Shown here one piece after another: positions 1,334 to 52,403 of a DNA stretch of 64,000 nt (positions are counted from its first letter, which is position 1; the number at the start of each line of letters is the position of its first letter). The translations under genes and the position numbers were made by a program. The notes below the pieces were generated by a model. It was not told the DNA's origin, made no database searches, and was given only the letters and a program-made list of their open reading frames with translations. The stretch comes from Patescibacteria group bacterium (lineage in GTDB: Bacteria > Patescibacteriota > Patescibacteriia > JAHJFT01): positions 359,397-423,396 of the forward strand of contig JAQTTB010000001.1 in assembly GCA_028710985.1 (NCBI GenBank), in the 5' to 3' direction.

Positions 1334-1879
1334 GCAGAGCTCCTTCTATATACCTCGACACTCGGTCGAGGATTTGCTTGGGGTTATATCACCGCTTCCC
1401 AGCTGGAGGAGAACCGTGGCACTAATTGGCGAGCTAAAATGCTCTTAATTATTTGAATGCCTGGTTAAACCCCCTCCATGTGGCAGGCGGTAATTTTTCC
1501 GGGAAAGAACTGGAGGCGTGTCTATTTGCGGGTTGCGCACGAGGCGCGCCGCAAATATAGGTTCTGCGAATGTACATGTTTTAGTAAACTCCTTGCGGAG
1601 ACCAAAACGGACATCCTTGGAACCGCCTCCGACTTGCTTTGTCCCAAAGGGACTGGGCTCGCCGTTGGTTGACCCCTCCATTTCTTTCTTGGAAAAAATC
1701 GCGGACGCGGAATTGGAGGCAGCGCCCGGGCATGGCCAATAAATTGGTCTTCCCGAGCAAATGGCATCCCTGTGACAAGGATTCACGAAGATTGCTCCTC
1801 GATTGATCCTTGAAGATGCCGCAGTTCGCATTGCCCGCTCCTCAACGGGCGGCGCGAAACAGTTGCTGTATATCCCGAT

Positions 1880-1898
1880 CTGCCTGCCGGTAGGCAGG
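1880..1898. repeat. copy of the 20-nt palindrome family (CTGCCTGCCGGTAGGCAGG), nested in the longer palindrome CCCGAT...ATCGGG (1874-1908)
   Basis: Direct read. It matches the perfect copies at 13248, 36130 and 36524 with 1-2 changes. Confidence 0.7.
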
Positions 1899-12207: not shown

Positions 12208-12897
12208 TTATTTTATAAGCAGTTTCGCGTACCTTCTCACTTCTCGCTTCCATGAATTCGAATCCGTGGTATCAATTTCAGCAAAAATCGGGAATGGAAA
12301 CTTTTTAATAATCCACTTACCGCCCTCTTGATTAACCCAACGATAATGATGGGGAGTGCGGCGCCACATCTCGCGAATCTTCACGGCAGCGCCCTTCGAT
12401 TGTTCGCTTCCTTGCCACCTGGACTTCGCGCCGCCAAAGAAGTCGTCAGCACTATCGTGGTAGGTTGCGGTAATTACGCGTCCAACTATGACATCAATGT
12501 CGCAATGAGTACGAACGAAAACAAGGCGAACGCCTGCTTTTTGCGCTTTTTCGCGAGCACTGGCGCGATTCTTCGCATCCACGAAGTCCGAATCGAGGAT
12601 AACATTACCGCCTCGTTTTAAAACTTCAAGCGCGGCATTTTCACCGATAGCACGGACTCGCTCATAGCATTCGTTTTGTTTGCGAAGTTCAATACGAATG
12701 TCGTCGCCCTTGATAATCGTCGCACCGATGTGCTTGGCAAGTTCTTGCGCCACCGTGCTCTTGCCAGAACCGACGAGGCCGATAATGGCCACGATGGTCG
12801 GCTTTTTAGACTTGCGTTTCTTGACGCTAAGCATTGACAAGAAAGATTCTTGGGCGCGTTGCTCTCTTTGTGTAAATTTTTTGTGTTCGTGAACCAT
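12208..12897 (-). CDS. P-loop NTPase / AAA_33-like kinase (zeta-toxin-like fold is possible)
   Basis: Walker A GLVGSGKST. Start placed at MVHEHKK (12897), so the ORF does not overlap the 12947 hairpin. Confidence 0.55.
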   Translation of the reverse strand: MVHEHKKFTQREQRAQESFLSMLSVKKRKSKKPTIVAIIGLVGSGKSTVAQELAKHIGATIIKGDDIRIELRKQNECYERVRAIGENAALEVLKRGGNVILDSDFVDAKNRASAREKAQKAGVRLVFVRTHCDIDVIVGRVITATYHDSADDFFGGAKSRWQGSEQSKGAAVKIREMWRRTPHHYRWVNQEGGKWIIKKFPFPIFAEIDTTDSNSWKREVRRYAKLLIK

Positions 12898-12964
12898 ACT
12901 GTAAATCTTAAGTAAAATATTTGAGTTGTCGATTTTAATTTGGAGCCCGCCAAAGGCGGACAAA

Positions 12965-12982
12965 AGCGGGCGACCGGAATCC
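12965..12982 (-). repeat. partial copy of the tRNA-Gly 3' end (T-loop through acceptor: agcgggcgaccggaatcc)
   Basis: Identical to 13076-13093 of the intact tRNA-Gly up to the T-loop. It lies 100 nt downstream of the gene. Confidence 0.7.
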
Positions 12983-13024
12983 CTGCCTTCGCCCCTCGAT
13001 AAGCTCGGGGCTACGGCAGGCAGG
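12982..13024. repeat. palindrome-family variant: CCTGCC + 27-nt internal segment + GGCAGGCAGG
   Basis: cctgcc-ttcgcccctcgataagctcggggctac-ggcaggcagg. The termini equal the arms of the 20-nt palindrome. Confidence 0.55.
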
Positions 13025-13075
13025 AAACCGGCATTCTATTTCGAGGATCCCGATCGGGTTGTTTAAAAAATTATC

Positions 13076-13147
13076 AGCGGGCGACCGGAATCGAACCGGC
13101 ATCTTCAGCTTGGAAGGCTAACATAATAGCCATTATACGACGCCCGC
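13076..13147 (-). tRNA. tRNA-Gly (anticodon TCC)
   Basis: Manual fold: GCGGGCG acceptor, anticodon loop CTTCCAA, T-arm GCCGG-TTCGATT-CCGGT, discriminator U, no encoded CCA. Leader and trailer form an extended inverted repeat (aaaaaattatca / tgataatttttt and ttcgaggatccc / gggatcctcgaa). Confidence 0.85.
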
Positions 13148-13222
13148 TGATAATTTTTTAAGGACTCTTACGGGCGGGATCCTCGAAAATTCAACCTCGC
13201 TTCGCTTCGGGAATTTTCGGGA

Positions 13223-13248
13223 GAAGGCTAACGTAATAGCCATTATAC
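13223..13248 (-). repeat. partial copy of tRNA-Gly positions about 10-35 (D-arm to anticodon loop), joined directly to the 20-nt palindrome
   Basis: gaaggctaacgtaatagccattatac matches 13113-13138 with 1 mismatch. The copy ends within the anticodon loop. Confidence 0.7.
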
Positions 13249-13267
13249 CTGCCTGCCGGCAGGCAGG
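13248..13267. repeat. 20-nt perfect palindrome CCTGCCTGCCGGCAGGCAGG
   Basis: Exact self-complementary 20-mer. Confidence 0.9.
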
Positions 13268-13279
13268 CGACACTCGCGA

Positions 13280-14269
13280 TTAAAATGCTGATCCAATAAT
13301 GCGATTAAGGATTTGCTTATATGATAATCCCTCATTGATTAACAGTCGTGGGAACATCGAAATGTCTGTAAAACCTGGAAGCGTGTTAATTTCATTTATA
13401 TAAACACGATTGTTATTTATAAAAAAATCGATTCGCGCAAAGCCGCGGCAGTCGCAAAGCCGATAAGCGCGTGAGGCGTAATTTAGAATTATGGAGGCTT
13501 GAGAGGTAGTCAATTTTGCTGGAATATTAATTTGCGTTTTATTGAGTTTATATTTGTCATCAAAATCGTAAAATTCATTTACCGGCACTATTTCGCCGGG
13601 TTTAGAAATCAGCGGGTCATGATTGCCTATAACCGCTACTTCAATTTCTTGCGGATTTTTAAGCCCCTGCTCAATCAATATTTTCTGATCATGCCGTCGG
13701 GCTTTGTTTATCGCCGCTGGCAGTTGAGAAAAACTATTAACTCTCGAAATTCCGATTGAAGATCCGGAGTTTGAAGGTTTTACAAAAATTGGCAAGTTAA
13801 AGGTTTTTTTAATTTTTTTTAATTTAATATCAATTTCTTTTTTTGAAAGAGTAGAATAATCAATTGATGCGAATCTGACTTGAGGGATACGATTATATTT
13901 AATAAAATTTTTAAAAAAAGATTTATCCATGCAAAGAGCCGAAGACAGAACGCGGCAGCCGCAATATTTGATGCCGCAATTTTCGAGCATGGCCTGCAAT
14001 ATCCCATCCTCGCCAAAACGGCCATGCGTTATGGGAAATGCAATATCAATAATTTTTTTAAAATCTTTTAATTCAATTTTTTTCAAACCAAGACGTGAAA
14101 GGTTATTGAAATTTTTTACAATATTGAATTCTCCATTTTTCCGCCAATACATTAACACCAGTGAGTATTTTTTAAAATCAAAGTTCTCGGCAATATTCTT
14201 CGCGGAAATTATGGATATATCCGATTCATTCCCCGGACCGCCAAGGATTAAACCTATTCTTTTTTTCAT
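13280..14269 (-). CDS. ddl: D-alanine--D-alanine ligase
   Basis: ATP-grasp Ddl layout: N-terminal GGxxxE..., a central ATP-grasp region and a C-terminal ...EINTLPGFT motif. GC is about 30%, far below its surroundings. Confidence 0.85.
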   Translation of the reverse strand: MKKRIGLILGGPGNESDISIISAKNIAENFDFKKYSLVLMYWRKNGEFNIVKNFNNLSRLGLKKIELKDFKKIIDIAFPITHGRFGEDGILQAMLENCGIKYCGCRVLSSALCMDKSFFKNFIKYNRIPQVRFASIDYSTLSKKEIDIKLKKIKKTFNLPIFVKPSNSGSSIGISRVNSFSQLPAAINKARRHDQKILIEQGLKNPQEIEVAVIGNHDPLISKPGEIVPVNEFYDFDDKYKLNKTQINIPAKLTTSQASIILNYASRAYRLCDCRGFARIDFFINNNRVYINEINTLPGFTDISMFPRLLINEGLSYKQILNRIIGSAF

Positions 14270-14277
14270 ATAAACTT

Positions 14278-14340
14278 TGGTCGGGGATGAGAGACTCGAA
14301 CTCTCGACCTTCCCGACCCAACGTCGGGACGCGCTACGAA
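14278..14340 (-). pseudogene. tRNA-Pro-derived fragment (D-stem 3' strand through CCA) with the anticodon arm replaced by a GTCCCGAC-GTTGG-GTCGGGA hairpin; no 5' acceptor strand
   Basis: TAGCGCG...AGGTCGAGAGTTCGAGTCTCTCATCCCCGACCA is identical to the intact tRNA-Pro. Upstream sequence cannot pair with the acceptor 3' strand. Confidence 0.7.
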
Positions 14341-14354
14341 TTATTTATTACAGA

Positions 14355-14395
14355 TGGTCGGGGCGGTGAGATTTGAACTCACGATCTCATGCTCC
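14355..14395 (-). pseudogene. 3' half of a split tRNA-Pro: GGA-GCATG-AGATC-GTGAG-TTCAAAT-CTCAC-CGCCCCG-A-CCA
   Basis: Pairs perfectly with the 5' half at 14510-14544 (see findings). Confidence 0.75.
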
Positions 14396-14509
14396 CCCGC
14401 CTGCCGTCGCCTTGGTCGGGGATGAGAGACTCGAACTCTCGACCTCCTGCTCCCAAAGCAGGCGCGCTACCAACTGCGCTAATCCCCGGCTCAGGCCATG
14501 GCGGGCAGG
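14396..14509 (-). mobile_element. 114-nt insertion splitting a tRNA-Pro in its anticodon loop; it carries a complete tRNA-Pro(TGG) and ends in CCCGCCTGCC...GGCGGGCAGG
   Basis: Boundaries defined by where the two tRNA halves stop pairing. Mobility is inferred. Confidence 0.45.
14413..14488 (-). tRNA. tRNA-Pro (anticodon TGG), CCA encoded
   Basis: CGGGGAT-TA-GCGC-AGTTGGTA-GCGC-G-CCTGC-TTTGGGA-GCAGG-AGGTC-GAGAG-TTCGAGT-CTCTC-ATCCCCG-A-CCA. C1:G72 and A73 are Pro identity elements. Confidence 0.9.
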
Positions 14510-14544
14510 CAAAGCATGCGCCTTAGCCGCTAGGCCACGCCCCG
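14510..14544 (-). pseudogene. 5' half of the split tRNA-Pro: CGGGGCG-TG-GCCT-AGCGGCTA-AGGC-G-CATGC-TTTG
   Basis: Acceptor, D-arm and anticodon-stem 5' strand. Complements 14355-14395. Confidence 0.75.
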
Positions 14545-14626
14545 GATAAATTTATTCTAATAATAGCAGAAATCACTAAATAAATCAAGATGCCCGGCTG
14601 GATTTTTTTGCTAAGATAAGCCATTT

Positions 14627-14662
14627 TAAAACCGTTCCGACAATTTGCCGGAACGGTTTTTT
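14627..14662. terminator. bidirectional rho-independent terminator downstream of tRNA-Phe
   Basis: aaaaccgttccg-acaatttgc-cggaacggtttttt: a 12-bp stem flanked by an A-run and a T-run. Confidence 0.65.
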
Positions 14663-14674
14663 GAAAATCCGTAA

Positions 14675-14746
14675 ATGCCTGGGGACAGAATTGAACTGTC
14701 GACACGTGGATTTTCAGTCCACTGCTCTACCACTGAGCTACCCAGG
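14675..14746 (-). tRNA. tRNA-Phe (anticodon GAA)
   Basis: GCCTGGG-TA-GCTC-AGTGGTA-GAGC-A-GTGGA-CTGAAAA-TCCAC-GTGTC-GACAG-TTCAATT-CTGTC-CCCAGGC-A. Confidence 0.9.
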
Positions 14747-14767
14747 CCCAGGGCTTTATAAAATTGA

Positions 14768-14844
14768 TGGTGGGCGCACGTGGACTCGAACCACGGACCT
14801 CGTCATTATCAGTGACGCGCTCTAACCAGCTGAGCTATGCGCCC
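14768..14844 (-). tRNA. tRNA-Ile (anticodon GAT), CCA encoded
   Basis: GGGCGCA-TA-GCTC-AGCTGGTTA-GAGC-G-CGTCA-CTGATAA-TGACG-AGGTC-CGTGG-TTCGAGT-CCACG-TGCGCCC-A-CCA. This is the classic tRNA that follows 16S in rrn operons. Confidence 0.9.
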
Positions 14845-15092
14845 AATATGTCATGGCTGATTCTTGCTTGTAAAAAGCGCCTCCCAAATCCGGTCTTAAA
14901 ATATTTTTCTCGCTTAAGGGCAAGTTCTTTGCTCAGGCAGGCTTCATAATATACCAGTTTCAATGGACGGCGTATTCGCGTTGAGTCCACTTTGCCCAAC
15001 GCATGCTCTTGGCAGCGTTTTTTTAAATCATCCGTAAAACCGATATAAAATTTCTTATCTTTTAAACTTAATAAAACGTAGGTAAAAAACAT
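14835..15092 (-). CDS. GIY-YIG nuclease family protein (85 aa)
   Basis: YVLLSLKDKKFYIGFTDDLKKRCQEH matches the GIY-YIG motif. Its 3' end overlaps the tRNA-Ile 5' end by about 10 nt. Confidence 0.7.
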   Translation of the reverse strand: MFFTYVLLSLKDKKFYIGFTDDLKKRCQEHALGKVDSTRIRRPLKLVYYEACLSKELALKREKYFKTGFGRRFLQARISHDILGA

Positions 15093-15107: not shown

Positions 15108-15488
15108 CTATGCACCCTTGGTTTCCAGGGTGACATTGATATTGGATGGATTGAATTTGTCCTGTATGTATTCTTTGATTTTATTCGGAGTATCCGAGCT
15201 GCCGCAGGTCAGAATGTCGATTGAGCAGTAGCCGTATTCTGGCCAGGTATAAATCGCGGCGTGGGATTCTTCCAGTATCGCGACTGCCGAGACCCCCTGG
15301 TGTTTAGTCAGCTCGCCGTTGAAAATTTTGTGATGGTAGTCAACAAAATTTACCAAATGTAAGCCGGCTTTGCTTATGGCAGATGTCAGAGTTTCTTTGA
15401 TTAGATTTCGGTCATTGAGCAATTGTTCGTTGACCCCATAGAACTCGGCGTAAAGATGATAGAGCCGAGGCGTATAGAGTTGTTCCAT
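15108..15488 (-). CDS. speH: S-adenosylmethionine decarboxylase proenzyme (class 1b, pyruvoyl)
   Basis: The self-cleavage motif ILEESHAAIYTWPEYGY is present. Size is about 126 aa. Confidence 0.85.
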   Translation of the reverse strand: MEQLYTPRLYHLYAEFYGVNEQLLNDRNLIKETLTSAISKAGLHLVNFVDYHHKIFNGELTKHQGVSAVAILEESHAAIYTWPEYGYCSIDILTCGSSDTPNKIKEYIQDKFNPSNINVTLETKGA

Positions 15489-15677
15489 TTCTTTATCCTC
15501 AATATTGGCGCGGCGGAAAGGCCCGTCAATATAAAAAAGACTATAAATTATGTAGCTACAGTATATTAATTTTCTGTAAGGATCGCAAGAGACTTTGTCC
15601 CTGTGGATACATAATTTAAAGCCTTCTCAACTTAGAAAGTGATAGGATTTCCTTCTTTGGGATATTTACTCCCTAGA

Positions 15678-17175
<1,498 letters not shown>

Positions 17176-21091: not shown

Positions 21092-21195
21092 AATGTACTC
21101 TTCATGAACCCACCATCCCAATGATGGCGGACTCATGTGAGTGCGCGACTGATTCAGGGGATGAATCATTATGTCGCGCAAGTTGGTGTGAAAGA
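21092..21195 (-). promoter_or_regulatory. 104-nt conserved leader, copy B (upstream of the lipoprotein gene); contains a GCGCGAC...GTCGCGC hairpin and a short uORF whose stop overlaps the main ATG
   Basis: About 98% identical to 22342-22445. Each copy sits directly 5' of a minus-strand Cys-rich gene. Confidence 0.6.
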
Positions 21196-22341: not shown

Positions 22342-22445
22342 AATGTACTCTTCATGAACCCACCATCCCAATGATGGCGGACTCGTGTGAGTGCGCGACT
22401 GATTCAGGGGATGAATCATTATGTCGCGCAAGTTGGTGTGAAAGA
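22342..22445 (-). promoter_or_regulatory. 104-nt conserved leader, copy A (upstream of the Zn-ribbon repeat gene)
   Basis: See 21092-21195. Confidence 0.6.
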
Positions 22446-36105: not shown

Positions 36106-36170
36106 TAAATTTAAAATTGAATTAAAATTCCTGCCTGCCGGCAGGCAGGTAAAACTTAAAATTTAAAATT
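36106..36170. repeat. AT-rich 41-bp unit (as at 23196-23240) carrying the 20-nt palindrome at 36130-36149: the 'filled site'
   Basis: tttaaaattgaattaaaatt-CCTGCCTGCCGGCAGGCAGG-taaaacttaaaatttaaaatt. Confidence 0.85.
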
Positions 36171-36181
36171 GCCCGAAGGGC

Positions 36182-36232
36182 TGGTAGCCCGTAGGGGAAT
36201 CGCCCCGACGTTTCGCTTCGCGAAAGTCGGGG
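36182..36232 (-). repeat. tRNA-Glu 3'-end copy (T-loop to CCA, 36182-36202) fused to a 30-nt hairpin CCCCGACGTTTCGCTTCGCGAAAGTCGGGG (36203-36232)
   Basis: tggtagcccgtaggggaatcg equals the 3' end of the intact tRNA-Glu. The hairpin core is identical (reverse orientation) to 52339-52366. Confidence 0.75.
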
Positions 36233-36353
36233 TACCGGGGCGCGGAGTTTATCTCGATGTATATCGGGACCTCTCGCGCCCGTTCGATTCCCTAAATTTA
36301 ATATTATTAAACATACAAAAAATCTCAGACATTTATCCGCGTCTGAGGTTTCT

Positions 36354-36428
36354 TGGTAGCCCGTAGGGGAATCGAACCCCTATTACCACATTGAAAGCGT
36401 GGTGTCCTAGCCATTAGACGAACGGGCC
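36354..36428 (-). tRNA. tRNA-Glu (anticodon TTC), CCA encoded, followed by its own terminator (36321-36350)
   Basis: GGCCCGT-TC-GTCT-AATGGCTA-GGAC-A-CCACG-CTTTCAA-TGTGG-TAAT-AGGGG-TTCGATT-CCCCT-ACGGGCT-A-CCA. Confidence 0.85.
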
Positions 36429-36510
36429 ATGAAATATGTTTTTAAATATGTTACCACATTGTCCGCCAAAGGCGGATGCGCCTCGCCTGTCCGCCTCTGG
36501 CGGAGGCGCA

Positions 36511-36565
36511 AAAGCGTGGTGTCCCTGCCTACCGGCAGGCAGGCTAGCCATTAGACGAACGGGCC
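36511..36565 (-). repeat. copy of the tRNA-Glu 5' half (positions 1-35, ending in the anticodon loop), interrupted after position 21 by the palindrome (36524-36543)
   Basis: GGCCCGTTCGTCTAATGGCTA-[CCTGCCTGCCGGTAGGCAGG]-GGACACCACGCTTT compared with the intact gene. Confidence 0.8.
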
Positions 36566-52023: not shown

Positions 52024-52142
52024 GCGCCTCCTCCTTTGTAAAAAAACGATTTTTCTCTATCTTACTTCTCGCAAAGTATATTGTCAATGCCTTGAATATT
52101 TGATTTATTTATGCTATTATACGTCAAAACATCCAGGCTCGT

Positions 52143-52214
52143 GCCCCTGTAGTGAAATGGACATCACGGCAGTCTTCGGAACTGCAATTTCAGGTTCGAA
52201 TCCTGGCGGGGGCA
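52143..52214 (+). tRNA. tRNA-Arg (anticodon TCG)
   Basis: GCCCCTG-TA-GTGA-AATGGACA-TCAC-G-GCAGT-CTTCGGA-ACTGC-AATT-TCAGG-TTCGAAT-CCTGG-CGGGGGC-A. Confidence 0.85.
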
Positions 52215-52336
52215 AGAGCGCGGGTGTTTTTTAATATTTTGGGTTCTGCGCCCGAGGCGCACTCGCCTTCGGCGAGGATTCCCTCTGGGCGCATTTTGTA
52301 ATTGACGTGGTTCGCCCCGACGCTTCGGTCGGGGGC

Positions 52337-52403
52337 GTCCCGACTTTCGCGAAGCGAAACGTCGGGACGAATCCTGGCGGGGCAAGAGCGCGGATGTTTT
52401 TTA
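52337..52403 (+). repeat. hairpin GTCCCGACTTTCGCGAAGCGAAACGTCGGGAC (52337-52368) fused to a 35-nt copy of the tRNA-Arg 3' end plus downstream flank (52369-52403, matching 52198-52233)
   Basis: gaatcctggcggggcaagagcgcggatgtttttta versus gaatcctggcgggggcaagagcgcgggtgtttttta. Confidence 0.8.

Follow-up and report, generated by a model that had tools for sequence, protein, structure and literature searches.

Among the tRNA genes of a Patescibacteria group bacterium, one locus raises the question of how a complete and presumably live tRNA gene came to lie inside another tRNA gene with the same anticodon, and whether the interrupted gene is repaired at the RNA level or is dead. The window, i.e. the whole stretch of 64,000 nucleotides (nt) analysed here (contig JAQTTB010000001.1, positions 359,397 to 423,396), contains on its minus strand a tRNA-Pro gene split in its anticodon loop by a 114-nt insertion that carries a second tRNA-Pro. 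We consider it probable that this arrangement arose at the DNA level, as the scar left by a selfish module colonising tRNA genes, and that it is not an RNA-spliced gene. In the best reading of the data, the outer tRNA-Pro is a dead copy interrupted at position 35/36 by an element of a palindrome-ended family, and the interior of this element is the live tRNA-Pro. A preliminary description of the locus, whose coordinates and sequences all agree with ours, had suggested a tRNA gene disrupted by a small tRNA-carrying insertion, and this is still the best way to describe it.

The 5' half of the outer gene (14510..14544, minus strand) comprises positions 1-35, that is, the 5' strand of the acceptor stem, the D arm, the 5' strand of the anticodon stem and the loop bases TTTG, and the 3' half (14355..14395, minus strand) comprises positions 36-76 including the CCA. 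The split gene is real: when 14396-14509 were deleted in silico, ARAGORN called a 76-nt tRNA-Pro(tgg) from the joined halves, which read ...CAUGCUUUGGGAGCAUG... across the junction. The joined molecule has an acceptor stem with 7/7 pairs, a D stem of 4 base pairs (bp), anticodon and T stems of 5 bp each, the anticodon TGG and an encoded CCA, and its minimum-free-energy fold is the cloverleaf. By direct reading, U8, A14, G18G19, U33, G37, the T-loop TTCAAAT, C1:G72 and A73 are present. The stem pairing and the anticodon pointed out previously were thus recovered by ARAGORN, and G37, C1:G72 and A73 by inspection. The outer halves complement each other perfectly, without a missing or an extra base, and the insertion site is 34/35 or 35/36, the placement being ambiguous owing to a run of G.

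The insertion starts with a 5' arm of 21 nt, CCTGCCCGCCATGGCCTGAGC (14489..14509, minus strand), which begins with the palindrome-family end CCTGCC, and terminates with a 3' arm of 17 nt, AGGCGACGGCAGGCGGG (14396..14412, minus strand), which finishes with the family end GGCAGG(CGGG). Between the arms lies the inner tRNA-Pro(UGG), presumed live and with an encoded CCA (14413..14488, minus strand). It is called by ARAGORN as tRNA-Pro(tgg), scores 71.4 bits with the Rfam model RF00005 and has the cloverleaf as its minimum free energy fold, and the earlier claim of a complete tRNA within the insertion therefore holds. The inner and the joined outer tRNA are 75% identical and represent two different tRNA-Pro sequences; their anticodon loops have 12 identical bases in common (GCTTTGGGAGCA). 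Comparison with other tRNA-Pro genes was uninformative for choosing the native one (83% vs 79% to that of locus L222). A 14-nt AT-rich spacer on the same strand separates the outer 3' half from a third piece of 63 nt (14278..14340, minus strand), a dead copy of the inner-type tRNA-Pro that had also been recognised before. Its last 33 nt are 100% identical to positions 44-76 of the inner tRNA, GTAGCGCG corresponds to positions 19-26, and the hairpin TCCCGAC-GTTGG-GTCGGGA (14311-14329) stands where the anticodon arm should be. The start codon of a D-Ala-D-Ala ligase gene (ddl) follows 8 nt beyond this piece.

The sole promoter-like site usable by the inner tRNA-Pro, TTGATT and TATTAT separated by 17 nt (14560..14588, minus strand; 9/12 matches in a consensus scan, with TG before the -10), lies just 5' of the outer 5' half, and a hairpin with a T run behind it, located after tRNA-Phe (14628-14660), divides the Pro unit from the upstream tRNAs. 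Folding of the 281-nt transcript gives a cloverleaf nested within a cloverleaf (-122.9 kcal/mol, z = -3.3, 0/200 shuffles as good). The arms of the insertion are complementary with a 2-nt bulge (GCCTGCC-CGCC / GGCG-ac-GGCAGGC), a pairing that is modestly above chance, as 158 of 5000 shuffled arms score equally. Transcription would thus start at the promoter of the outer gene, and the inner gene would carry a leader of ~70 nt that includes the dead 5' half. Pairing of the arms would allow the live cloverleaf to fold alone, insulated from its look-alike flanks, and RNase P and 3' processing would then free the inner tRNA, leaving the outer halves as by-products. With the anticodon severed between G35 and G36, these halves could not serve in decoding. 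It is from the sequence that we infer the non-function of the outer tRNA, the transcription unit and the order of events.

If the insertion were instead an RNA-level intron, the 114 nt would be removed, the outer halves ligated, and each precursor would yield two functional tRNA-Pro. The outer exons are indeed intact and exactly contiguous once the insertion is taken out, the precursor fold brings the junctions together, and the site (34/35 or 35/36) coincides with position 35/36, where group I introns interrupt tRNA genes of Patescibacteria (Nakagawa et al. 2026, PMC13011429), although in the Glu and Gly nests of the window this site also holds insertions that are not introns. However, the insertion is not an intron, because it is too small for a ribozyme, has no Rfam match at E <= 10 and has its junctions opposite each other. 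With 76 of its 114 nt being tRNA, it falls short of a group I core (P3-P9, usually >200 nt) and could not hold a group II core either, and an Rfam scan of 12800-15000 at this same threshold detected neither of the two intron types; the opinion voiced earlier that it is too short for a group I intron was well founded. The bulge-helix-bulge geometry (two 3-nt bulges, 4 bp apart) was not found in the predicted fold of the locus, where the two junctions face each other directly in a near-continuous helix, and ARAGORN in intron mode did not report the outer gene in the unedited sequence. To our knowledge, bacteria have no tRNA splicing endonuclease. Furthermore, two sister nests in the window, those of tRNA-Glu and tRNA-Gly, have outer copies that are clearly defective (the anticodon stem in Gly, the T-loop in Glu), and, with the anticodon shared, one of the two tRNA-Pro would be superfluous. 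Splicing of the outer gene is thus very unlikely.

The outer halves might also function without being ligated, staying paired after release of the inner tRNA as a two-piece tRNA or a tRNA-like regulator. The two stems would contribute 7 + 5 bp to such a complex and the paired arms another ~11-15 bp, and split tRNAs are known in Nanoarchaeum. In this case, however, the break lies inside the anticodon and decoding would require ligation. There is moreover no sign of conservation, since the outer 5' half has no homologue in species representatives (0 exact matches of its 21-mer in 185,579 species-representative genomes), and the sister nests are visibly decaying. A working split tRNA is accordingly highly improbable.

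The ends of the insertion lead to a different explanation. Their resemblance to a 20-nt palindrome had been noted in the preliminary description, and this proved to be the key lead, as CCTGCC...GGCAGG(CGGG) matches the ends of a family of insertions found in dead tRNA copies elsewhere. The palindrome, CCTGCCTGCCGGCAGGCAGG, has four copies in the window at up to 3 mismatches, against 0.01 expected. In species-representative genomes the exact 20-mer was found in at least 120 stretches, and in viral contigs in another 35, with ~1 chance match expected; 198 distinct exact copies were collected. Its hosts include many lineages of the Candidate Phyla Radiation (CPR), Bacteroidota (cultured strains included), Omnitrophota, Planctomycetota, Thermodesulfobacteriota and metagenome-assembled genomes labelled as Proteobacteria. 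The palindrome is far from being a chance motif, and its identity across phyla calls for a mechanism: it could be a nuclease target, the end of an element, or a device blocking recombinational deletion of the element.

At ~10 of the genome palindrome loci among the matches listed, a tRNA-like sequence is interrupted and a complete tRNA of the same type lies nearby; in loci selected by the palindrome, 22 of 45 complete tRNAs have fragments of themselves within 1 kb. The insertions in the dead copies constitute a family: CCTGCC...GGCAGG ends form terminal inverted repeats common to many copies, and the interior varies from 0 nt, as in the 20-mer itself, up to 96 nt. A target-site duplication was not seen, as the tRNA sequence resumes exactly (e.g. 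positions 1-22 and then 23-37) at many loci and at the Pro site, and in every readable case of the family it does so without loss or duplication. The right junction of the insertion in L213, GGCAGGCGGG followed by GAGCAT, is nearly identical to that of Pro, GGCAGGCGGG followed by GGAGCATG, and site 35/36 is used by the Pro, Glu and Gly nests as well as by L030. The Pro insertion is assigned to the palindrome family because of the shared ends, the precise and duplication-free insertion and the shared site 35/36. The only protein consistently near the palindrome is a GIY-YIG nuclease, and no transposase family was identified.

The preference of the palindrome for particular flanks is weak (A at -1, T at +1). 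Targeting of hairpin loops was discarded as a general rule, since a flanking helix of at least 6 bp is enriched (5.1% of copies vs 0.7% of controls) and yet concerns a small minority. Palindrome arms enclosing cargo at other loci were likewise rejected: nearly all matches were neighbouring copies, and only small hairpins like that of L141 fit. GC hairpins in dead copies are often capped by UUCG or GNRA-type loops (window 52260-52370; L167, L169, L222 and L204), examples being CTCGCC-TTCG-GCGAG, CCTCCC-TTCG-GGGAGG and CGCC-GGAA-GGCG. Such caps are a mark of selection acting on RNA structure and not on DNA, which hints that the capped hairpins matter at the RNA level, perhaps by stopping dead fragments from mispairing with the live tRNA. 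For the perfect 20-nt palindrome, a role as a site in the DNA seems more plausible.

The palindrome often occurs amid tandem repeats of 7-8 nt (e.g. L046, L083, L102, L051 and L059). In L061 (3861-4151), the palindrome, translated as PACRQAG, and a GIY-YIG domain lie in frame in the middle of a long open reading frame (ORF) resembling hsdS (type I restriction specificity subunit), and the element is therefore not restricted to tRNAs. Several copies belong to cultured Bacteroidota (L086, L013, L034, L066, L067, L083 and L091). One of these is Agriterribacter humi YJ03 (L086, at a contig end), where a tRNA-like copy is interrupted by a palindrome that comes after the C-terminal end of a GIY-YIG ORF. 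The system could therefore be studied in culture.

The window itself encodes an intact GIY-YIG ORF of 85 amino acids (aa) (14835..15092, minus strand; PF01541, 53.3 bits), whose stop codon TAG forms nt 8-10 of the tRNA-Ile gene lying directly downstream (14768-14844, minus strand). This stop (14835) is 291 nt upstream of the start of the outer tRNA-Pro (14544); the ORF had escaped notice in the preliminary description. The ORF is the only intact nuclease copy in the window, where tblastn revealed no second one. The closest solved structure is UPF0213 BH0048, and the group to which the protein belongs is the little-studied UPF0213. Residues Y5, Y16, G18, R26, H30 and E62 of the catalytic site are invariant in the nuclease alignment, the match to TIGR01453 is weak, and so is the sequence resemblance to phage nucleases. 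The GIY-YIG ORFs of ~80 aa are predicted to encode active nucleases.

At several palindrome loci, an ORF of this kind fills the gap between a dead 5' fragment and the live tRNA. As a control for selection bias, 80 metagenome loci were picked with the nuclease motif REKYLKSG as the sole criterion; among the first 600 candidates, 523 could be confirmed. In 51 of the 72 evaluable loci a tRNA on the same strand starts between -45 and +60 nt from the ORF stop, which often lies within the tRNA, at the TAG of GTAGCTCA or GGTAGA. In nearly all of these (45/51), the sequence immediately before the ORF holds 5' fragments of the tRNA in question, for the most part 100% identical to it, and a palindrome with up to 3 mismatches is located 13-54 nt upstream of the ORF in 38 of the 80 loci. 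As a rule the palindrome falls precisely at 21-23 of the fragment (15/16 in tRNA-Leu), and no tRNA base is missing or added at the break. The ends of the dead fragments are concentrated in the anticodon loop (33-39) and in the T arm (49-56). Among the isotypes involved are Arg, Asn, Lys, Leu, Phe, Gly, Met, Thr, Ser, Gln and Pro. A mirror-image arrangement also exists, with the live tRNA, the ORF and a dead 3' copy in this order and the palindrome at 53/54 or 30/31. Fragments of the 5' type are the commonest kind. Live tRNAs with dead pieces on both sides amount to 14/101 in the nuclease-selected and 4/45 in the palindrome-selected loci, and those of L040, L075 and L167 retain the ORF or remnants of it.

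These observations are best read as a module of three parts: a GIY-YIG ORF of ~80 aa abutting a live tRNA; a dead copy or fragment of this tRNA, which lies beyond the opposite end of the ORF; and a precise, duplication-free insertion of the palindrome family in the dead copy. The module is seen intact elsewhere and, in the window, beside tRNA-Ile. At the Pro locus, according to the same reading, the ORF is no longer present and the third piece is a further dead copy of the inner type. Hairpins replacing the anticodon arm of dead copies were also met in L119, with the same TCCCGAC/GTCGGGA stem, and in L169 (TCCGCC-TTCG-GCGGA), which accounts for the third Pro piece. In L119 (2503-2855) three tandem units of ~92 nt precede a live tRNA-Gly, each made of positions 1-26 of a dead tRNA-Gly and a GC hairpin in place of the anticodon arm.

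Contrary to what the preliminary description implied, the Pro locus is not a one-off oddity, since three other tRNA genes in the window and many in other phyla carry dead copies of themselves. The window has six tRNA genes (Pro, Gly, Glu, Arg, Ile and Phe), among which four (Pro, Gly, Glu and Arg) have related scars and only tRNA-Phe (14676-14747, minus strand) is unmarked. In the tRNA-Gly nest (12965..13277, minus strand), the live gene (13075-13148, minus strand) lies between long inverted repeats that abut its acceptor stem. The dead 5' copy consists of GCGAGTGTCG, an exact palindrome at 10/11 (13248-13267) and positions 11-36, and in the dead 3' piece a hairpin with palindrome arms (~12982-13024) splits the T-loop before positions 57-73. 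The outer tRNA-Gly is clearly defunct, because the 3' strand of its anticodon stem has been lost. The complementarity of the arms was not equalled by any of 5000 shuffles. The live tRNA-Gly forms the tip of an inverted repeat of ~43 nt, which is interrupted and has two blocks of 14-15 bp; the repeat begins right at the acceptor stem, discriminator included.

The tRNA-Glu nest (36182..36565, minus strand) is more complex. Its live gene (36354-36428, minus strand), which has a terminator-like hairpin, occupies site 46/47 of the outer copy, which reads positions 1-22, a palindrome with one mismatch (36524-36543), 23-35, a GC-rich insert of 49 nt at 35/36, and 36-46. After the live gene come a degenerate stretch resembling 47-58, an insertion in the T-loop, which is thereby damaged, and positions 55-75. 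All clear pieces of the outer copy are 100% identical to the live gene despite four or five insertions, so that insertions seem to pile up much faster than point changes in this nest, or else the copies are homogenised. An exact solo palindrome lies 33 nt past the 3' end of the outer tRNA-Glu (36130..36149, without strand), and a variant with two mismatches is found in the loop of another hairpin, ATCCCGAT...ATCGGGA (1879..1898, without strand). On the plus strand, the live tRNA-Arg (52142-52215; nest 52142..52400) with its terminator-like tail is followed ~85 nt downstream by a dead 3' copy made of GGTTCG, a T-loop insertion of 56 nt forming a double hairpin, and AATCCTGGCGGGG. A second terminator-like tail comes after this copy, AGAGCGCGG[G/A]TGTTTTTT being duplicated, and the hairpin CCCGAC-TTTCGCGAAGCGAAAC-GTCGGG is common to the Arg and Glu nests.

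The presence of two Pro types and a third piece within 270 nt could suggest a local duplication or rearrangement without any dedicated element, in which slippage or unequal recombination produced tRNA-Pro copies in tandem that became scrambled afterwards. The GC-rich hairpins would then be unrelated filler and the nearby nuclease gene a coincidence. The 12 identical anticodon-loop bases could have mediated template switching, and the nest has no nuclease remnant detectable by tblastn. Nevertheless, a simple duplication yields tandem and not nested copies, and it does not predict outer halves that are exactly complementary with no base lost or gained, nor insertion ends that match an element family spread across phyla. 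The related scars in four of the six tRNA genes of the window, together with the very strong association of nuclease, palindrome and tRNA fragments in the sample selected by protein only, also speak against coincidence, and we regard a duplication of this type as unlikely.

Fragments of tRNA genes left by element integration are well known (bioRxiv 10.1101/2022.07.05.498093), and the locus was also considered as the scar of a tyrosine integrase, whose element would have entered a tRNA-Pro with a copy of the tRNA 3' end (duplication of the attachment site, att) and later been almost wholly deleted. The third piece does repeat the last 33 nt of the inner tRNA exactly, as attL and attR would, and the fragments starting in the T-loop at Gly, Glu and Arg resemble common att sites. 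The expected product of such an event is, however, a complete tRNA, an island and a 3' fragment, and not a gene split in the anticodon that encloses a different complete tRNA. Just 102 nt separate the 33-nt repeats, no integrase gene occurs in the 6.7 kb downstream, the related loci have a GIY-YIG nuclease and not an integrase between the copies, and the prevalence of 5' fragments is not the usual outcome of integrase activity. An integrase origin consequently appears improbable.

A chimeric join of repeats in a metagenome-assembled genome would be the most trivial explanation. The locus has an exact repeat of 33 nt, and an independent short-read assembly (Logan, L001) ends 7 nt before the junction. 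From 14388 downwards, though, that assembly agrees with the window at 99.985% identity over the outer 3' half, the third piece and ddl, and the source contig is 744 kb long. A chimera would not create two exactly complementary tRNA halves. Dozens of separately assembled sequences, some of them from isolates or curated complete genomes, show equivalent structures, and an artefact is extremely unlikely. The first bases of the Logan contig (L001:1-10) differ from window 14388-14395, in the variable region of the outer tRNA-Pro (CAAGAGGTC vs CATGAGATC), which could reflect strain variation, gene conversion at the nest or an error at the contig end.

As for the surroundings of the nests, the 16S rRNA gene (15677-17174), an ORF resembling S-adenosylmethionine (AdoMet) decarboxylase (15108-15488, minus strand) and the GIY-YIG ORF lie before tRNA-Ile. 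No tRNA-Ala or 23S rRNA gene follows the 16S gene within the window, and the latter appears to be unlinked from the 23S gene. No record with exactly the sequences of the GIY-YIG and AdoMet-decarboxylase proteins was found. Identity to the nearest Ddl homologue is 60%, and gene order is not preserved; in three relatives, the ddl loci showed no synteny with rRNA or tRNA genes. An identical sequence of 39 nt that forms a hairpin, TGCGCGAC...GTCGCGCA, occurs twice on the plus strand (21142-21180 and 22392-22430), 1250 nt apart, and the pair may represent the ends of an insertion sequence or a duplicated segment.

How the live tRNA-Pro entered the hairpin can be conceived in two ways. It may have been brought by a palindrome-ended element that carried it into the resident gene and could survive only because it delivered a replacement tRNA. 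Alternatively, a break upstream of the live tRNA may have been followed by snap-back synthesis primed at the hairpin of the acceptor stem, which would copy the 3' trailer into the 5' arm and delete the ORF. In the latter route, the break would be resected, the 3' tail would fold on the acceptor stem, the unpaired flap would be trimmed and the paired end would be extended along the trailer. Palindromes are known to form at breaks beside short inverted repeats. Perfect extensions of the acceptor stem by 10-17 bp (about one less beyond pair 1:72) were observed in the tRNA-Gly of the window, L167 and L075, as compared with up to 5 bp in the other 150 of 153 tRNAs. In these three, base -1 pairs with the discriminator and the 5' arm is the reverse complement of discriminator plus trailer, from which we infer the signature expected of snap-back synthesis.

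Several points weigh against the interpretation of the Pro locus as a scar of the module. Searches by tblastn for nuclease remnants in the Pro, Gly, Glu and Arg nests gave only noise; ATGGCCTGA in the 5' arm, considered as the nuclease start fused to a stop, has 9 nt and is too short to argue from. The tie of the Pro nest to the module is suggested by analogy and by the family ends. The outer and inner tRNA-Pro are far from the ~100% identity of the dead and live pairs of typical modules, and the inner one is therefore not a simple duplicate of the outer. The stereotyped palindrome is a closed hairpin beside a live tRNA, and the Pro locus is the only place where an element of the family was seen to enclose a tRNA. 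The complementarity of the Pro arms has p ~0.03 and base -1 is unpaired with A73; the snap-back signature is hence weak or old at this locus. Within the collections searched, no close relative or alternative allele showed an empty site, and the control for self-fragments in unselected genomes consists of two tRNAs only.

As a bolder and rather doubtful extension, the UPF0213-type GIY-YIG nucleases and the CCTGCC...GGCAGG family might constitute a minimal mobile system that acts on folded nucleic acid, cutting and pasting units with pairing ends (the 20-nt palindrome, larger hairpins or a whole tRNA closed by its acceptor stem) precisely and without target duplication, mostly into tRNA genes. 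If so, the Pro locus would be a self-rescuing insertion, which destroys an essential gene and carries its replacement, so that the host cannot lose the element, and the system would provide a route for horizontal replacement of tRNA genes across phyla. Returning to the scar of a selfish module, this reading, if true, would make the tRNA genes of CPR, Bacteroidota, Omnitrophota, Planctomycetota and others a battleground for a compact module. It would account for tRNA-like debris, for nested and duplicated tRNA genes that confuse annotation, and for assembly breaks at tRNA loci, such as the Logan contig ending at the nest. An essential gene surviving inside the wreck of its predecessor and borrowing its promoter would also suggest how tRNA genes get replaced horizontally. 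The module can be tested in cultured strains such as Agriterribacter humi YJ03, and its nuclease has only ~80 aa.

In open-access papers and bioRxiv, we found neither the palindrome sequence, nor a link between small GIY-YIG/UPF0213 genes and bacterial tRNA genes, nor a tRNA nested in a tRNA, and the selfish module is apparently undescribed. The absence of precedent stated in the preliminary description thus stands for the nesting as far as the searchable literature goes; however, GIY-YIG homing endonucleases that are linked to tRNA genes and duplicate them exist in phages (SegB, PMC13096335). Partial tRNA copies that are identical to a live gene and adjoin it are also typical of att duplications. 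The module loci differ from these in having a nuclease and not an integrase between the copies, a dominance of 5' fragments, a palindrome interrupting the fragments, and true nesting. In the disrupted tRNA genes of archaea and algae (multiple non-canonical introns, split and permuted genes), the D-, anticodon-, variable and T-loops are likewise interrupted by short GC-rich helices, and similar insertions are common to different tRNAs. There, however, the interrupted gene is functional and requires a bulge-helix-bulge and a splicing endonuclease, whereas the loci described here have no bulge-helix-bulge motif, each interrupted copy has an intact one next to it, and decay of the interrupted copies is evident.

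The group I introns of Patescibacteria resemble the Pro insertion in phylum and in the kind of gene affected, they lie in the anticodon loop at a site identical or adjacent to that of Pro, and they too are missed by standard tRNA finders. Those introns are true ribozymes, and their report makes no mention of hairpins, palindromes or nested tRNAs (PMC13011429). The Pro insertion, in contrast, has 114 nt, is mostly tRNA and contains no ribozyme, which excludes self-splicing. In both settings GIY-YIG nucleases come into play, as they are classic passengers of group I introns.

The nearest characterised system is SegB of phages, a GIY-YIG homing endonuclease widely co-located with tRNA genes that cuts tRNA-containing DNA; the break and subsequent recombination drive tandem duplication of tRNA-plus-segB units, and the nuclease gene shows microhomology at its end to the 5' end of the tRNA (Brok-Volchanskaya 2008; PMC13096335). 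As with the free-standing SegB of T4/T6, the module has a GIY-YIG gene directly beside tRNA genes of many isotypes (at tRNA-Ile in the window and at 51 of 72 related loci, but not inside the Pro nest), the stop of its ORF lies inside the tRNA, which recalls the microhomology, and duplicated tRNA segments flank the nuclease gene (in 45/51 loci, and in the mirror-image modules with 3' copies). Unlike SegB, the module ORFs of ~80 aa consist of a catalytic domain only, are of the UPF0213 type and reside in cellular chromosomes of CPR, Bacteroidota and other phyla. SegB is larger, with ~220 aa and a DNA-binding part. In addition, SegB produces tandem repeats of whole units, whereas the copies of the module are partial, dead, interrupted by the palindrome and sometimes nested.

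Finally, the palindrome family can be compared with palindromic repeats such as the GC clusters of yeast and fungal mitochondria, the Rickettsia palindromic elements, repetitive extragenic palindromic (REP) sequences and miniature inverted-repeat transposable elements (MITEs). These are short GC-rich hairpin units present in many copies, located within genes and within each other and often accompanied by homing-endonuclease genes, as is the case here. The known families are lineage-specific, while the 20-mer is identical across phyla and viral contigs, has no target-site duplication and shows a tight association with a single small nuclease gene and with dead copies of tRNAs. Moreover, and unlike those repeats, one member of the palindrome family, the one at the Pro locus, carries a whole tRNA gene.

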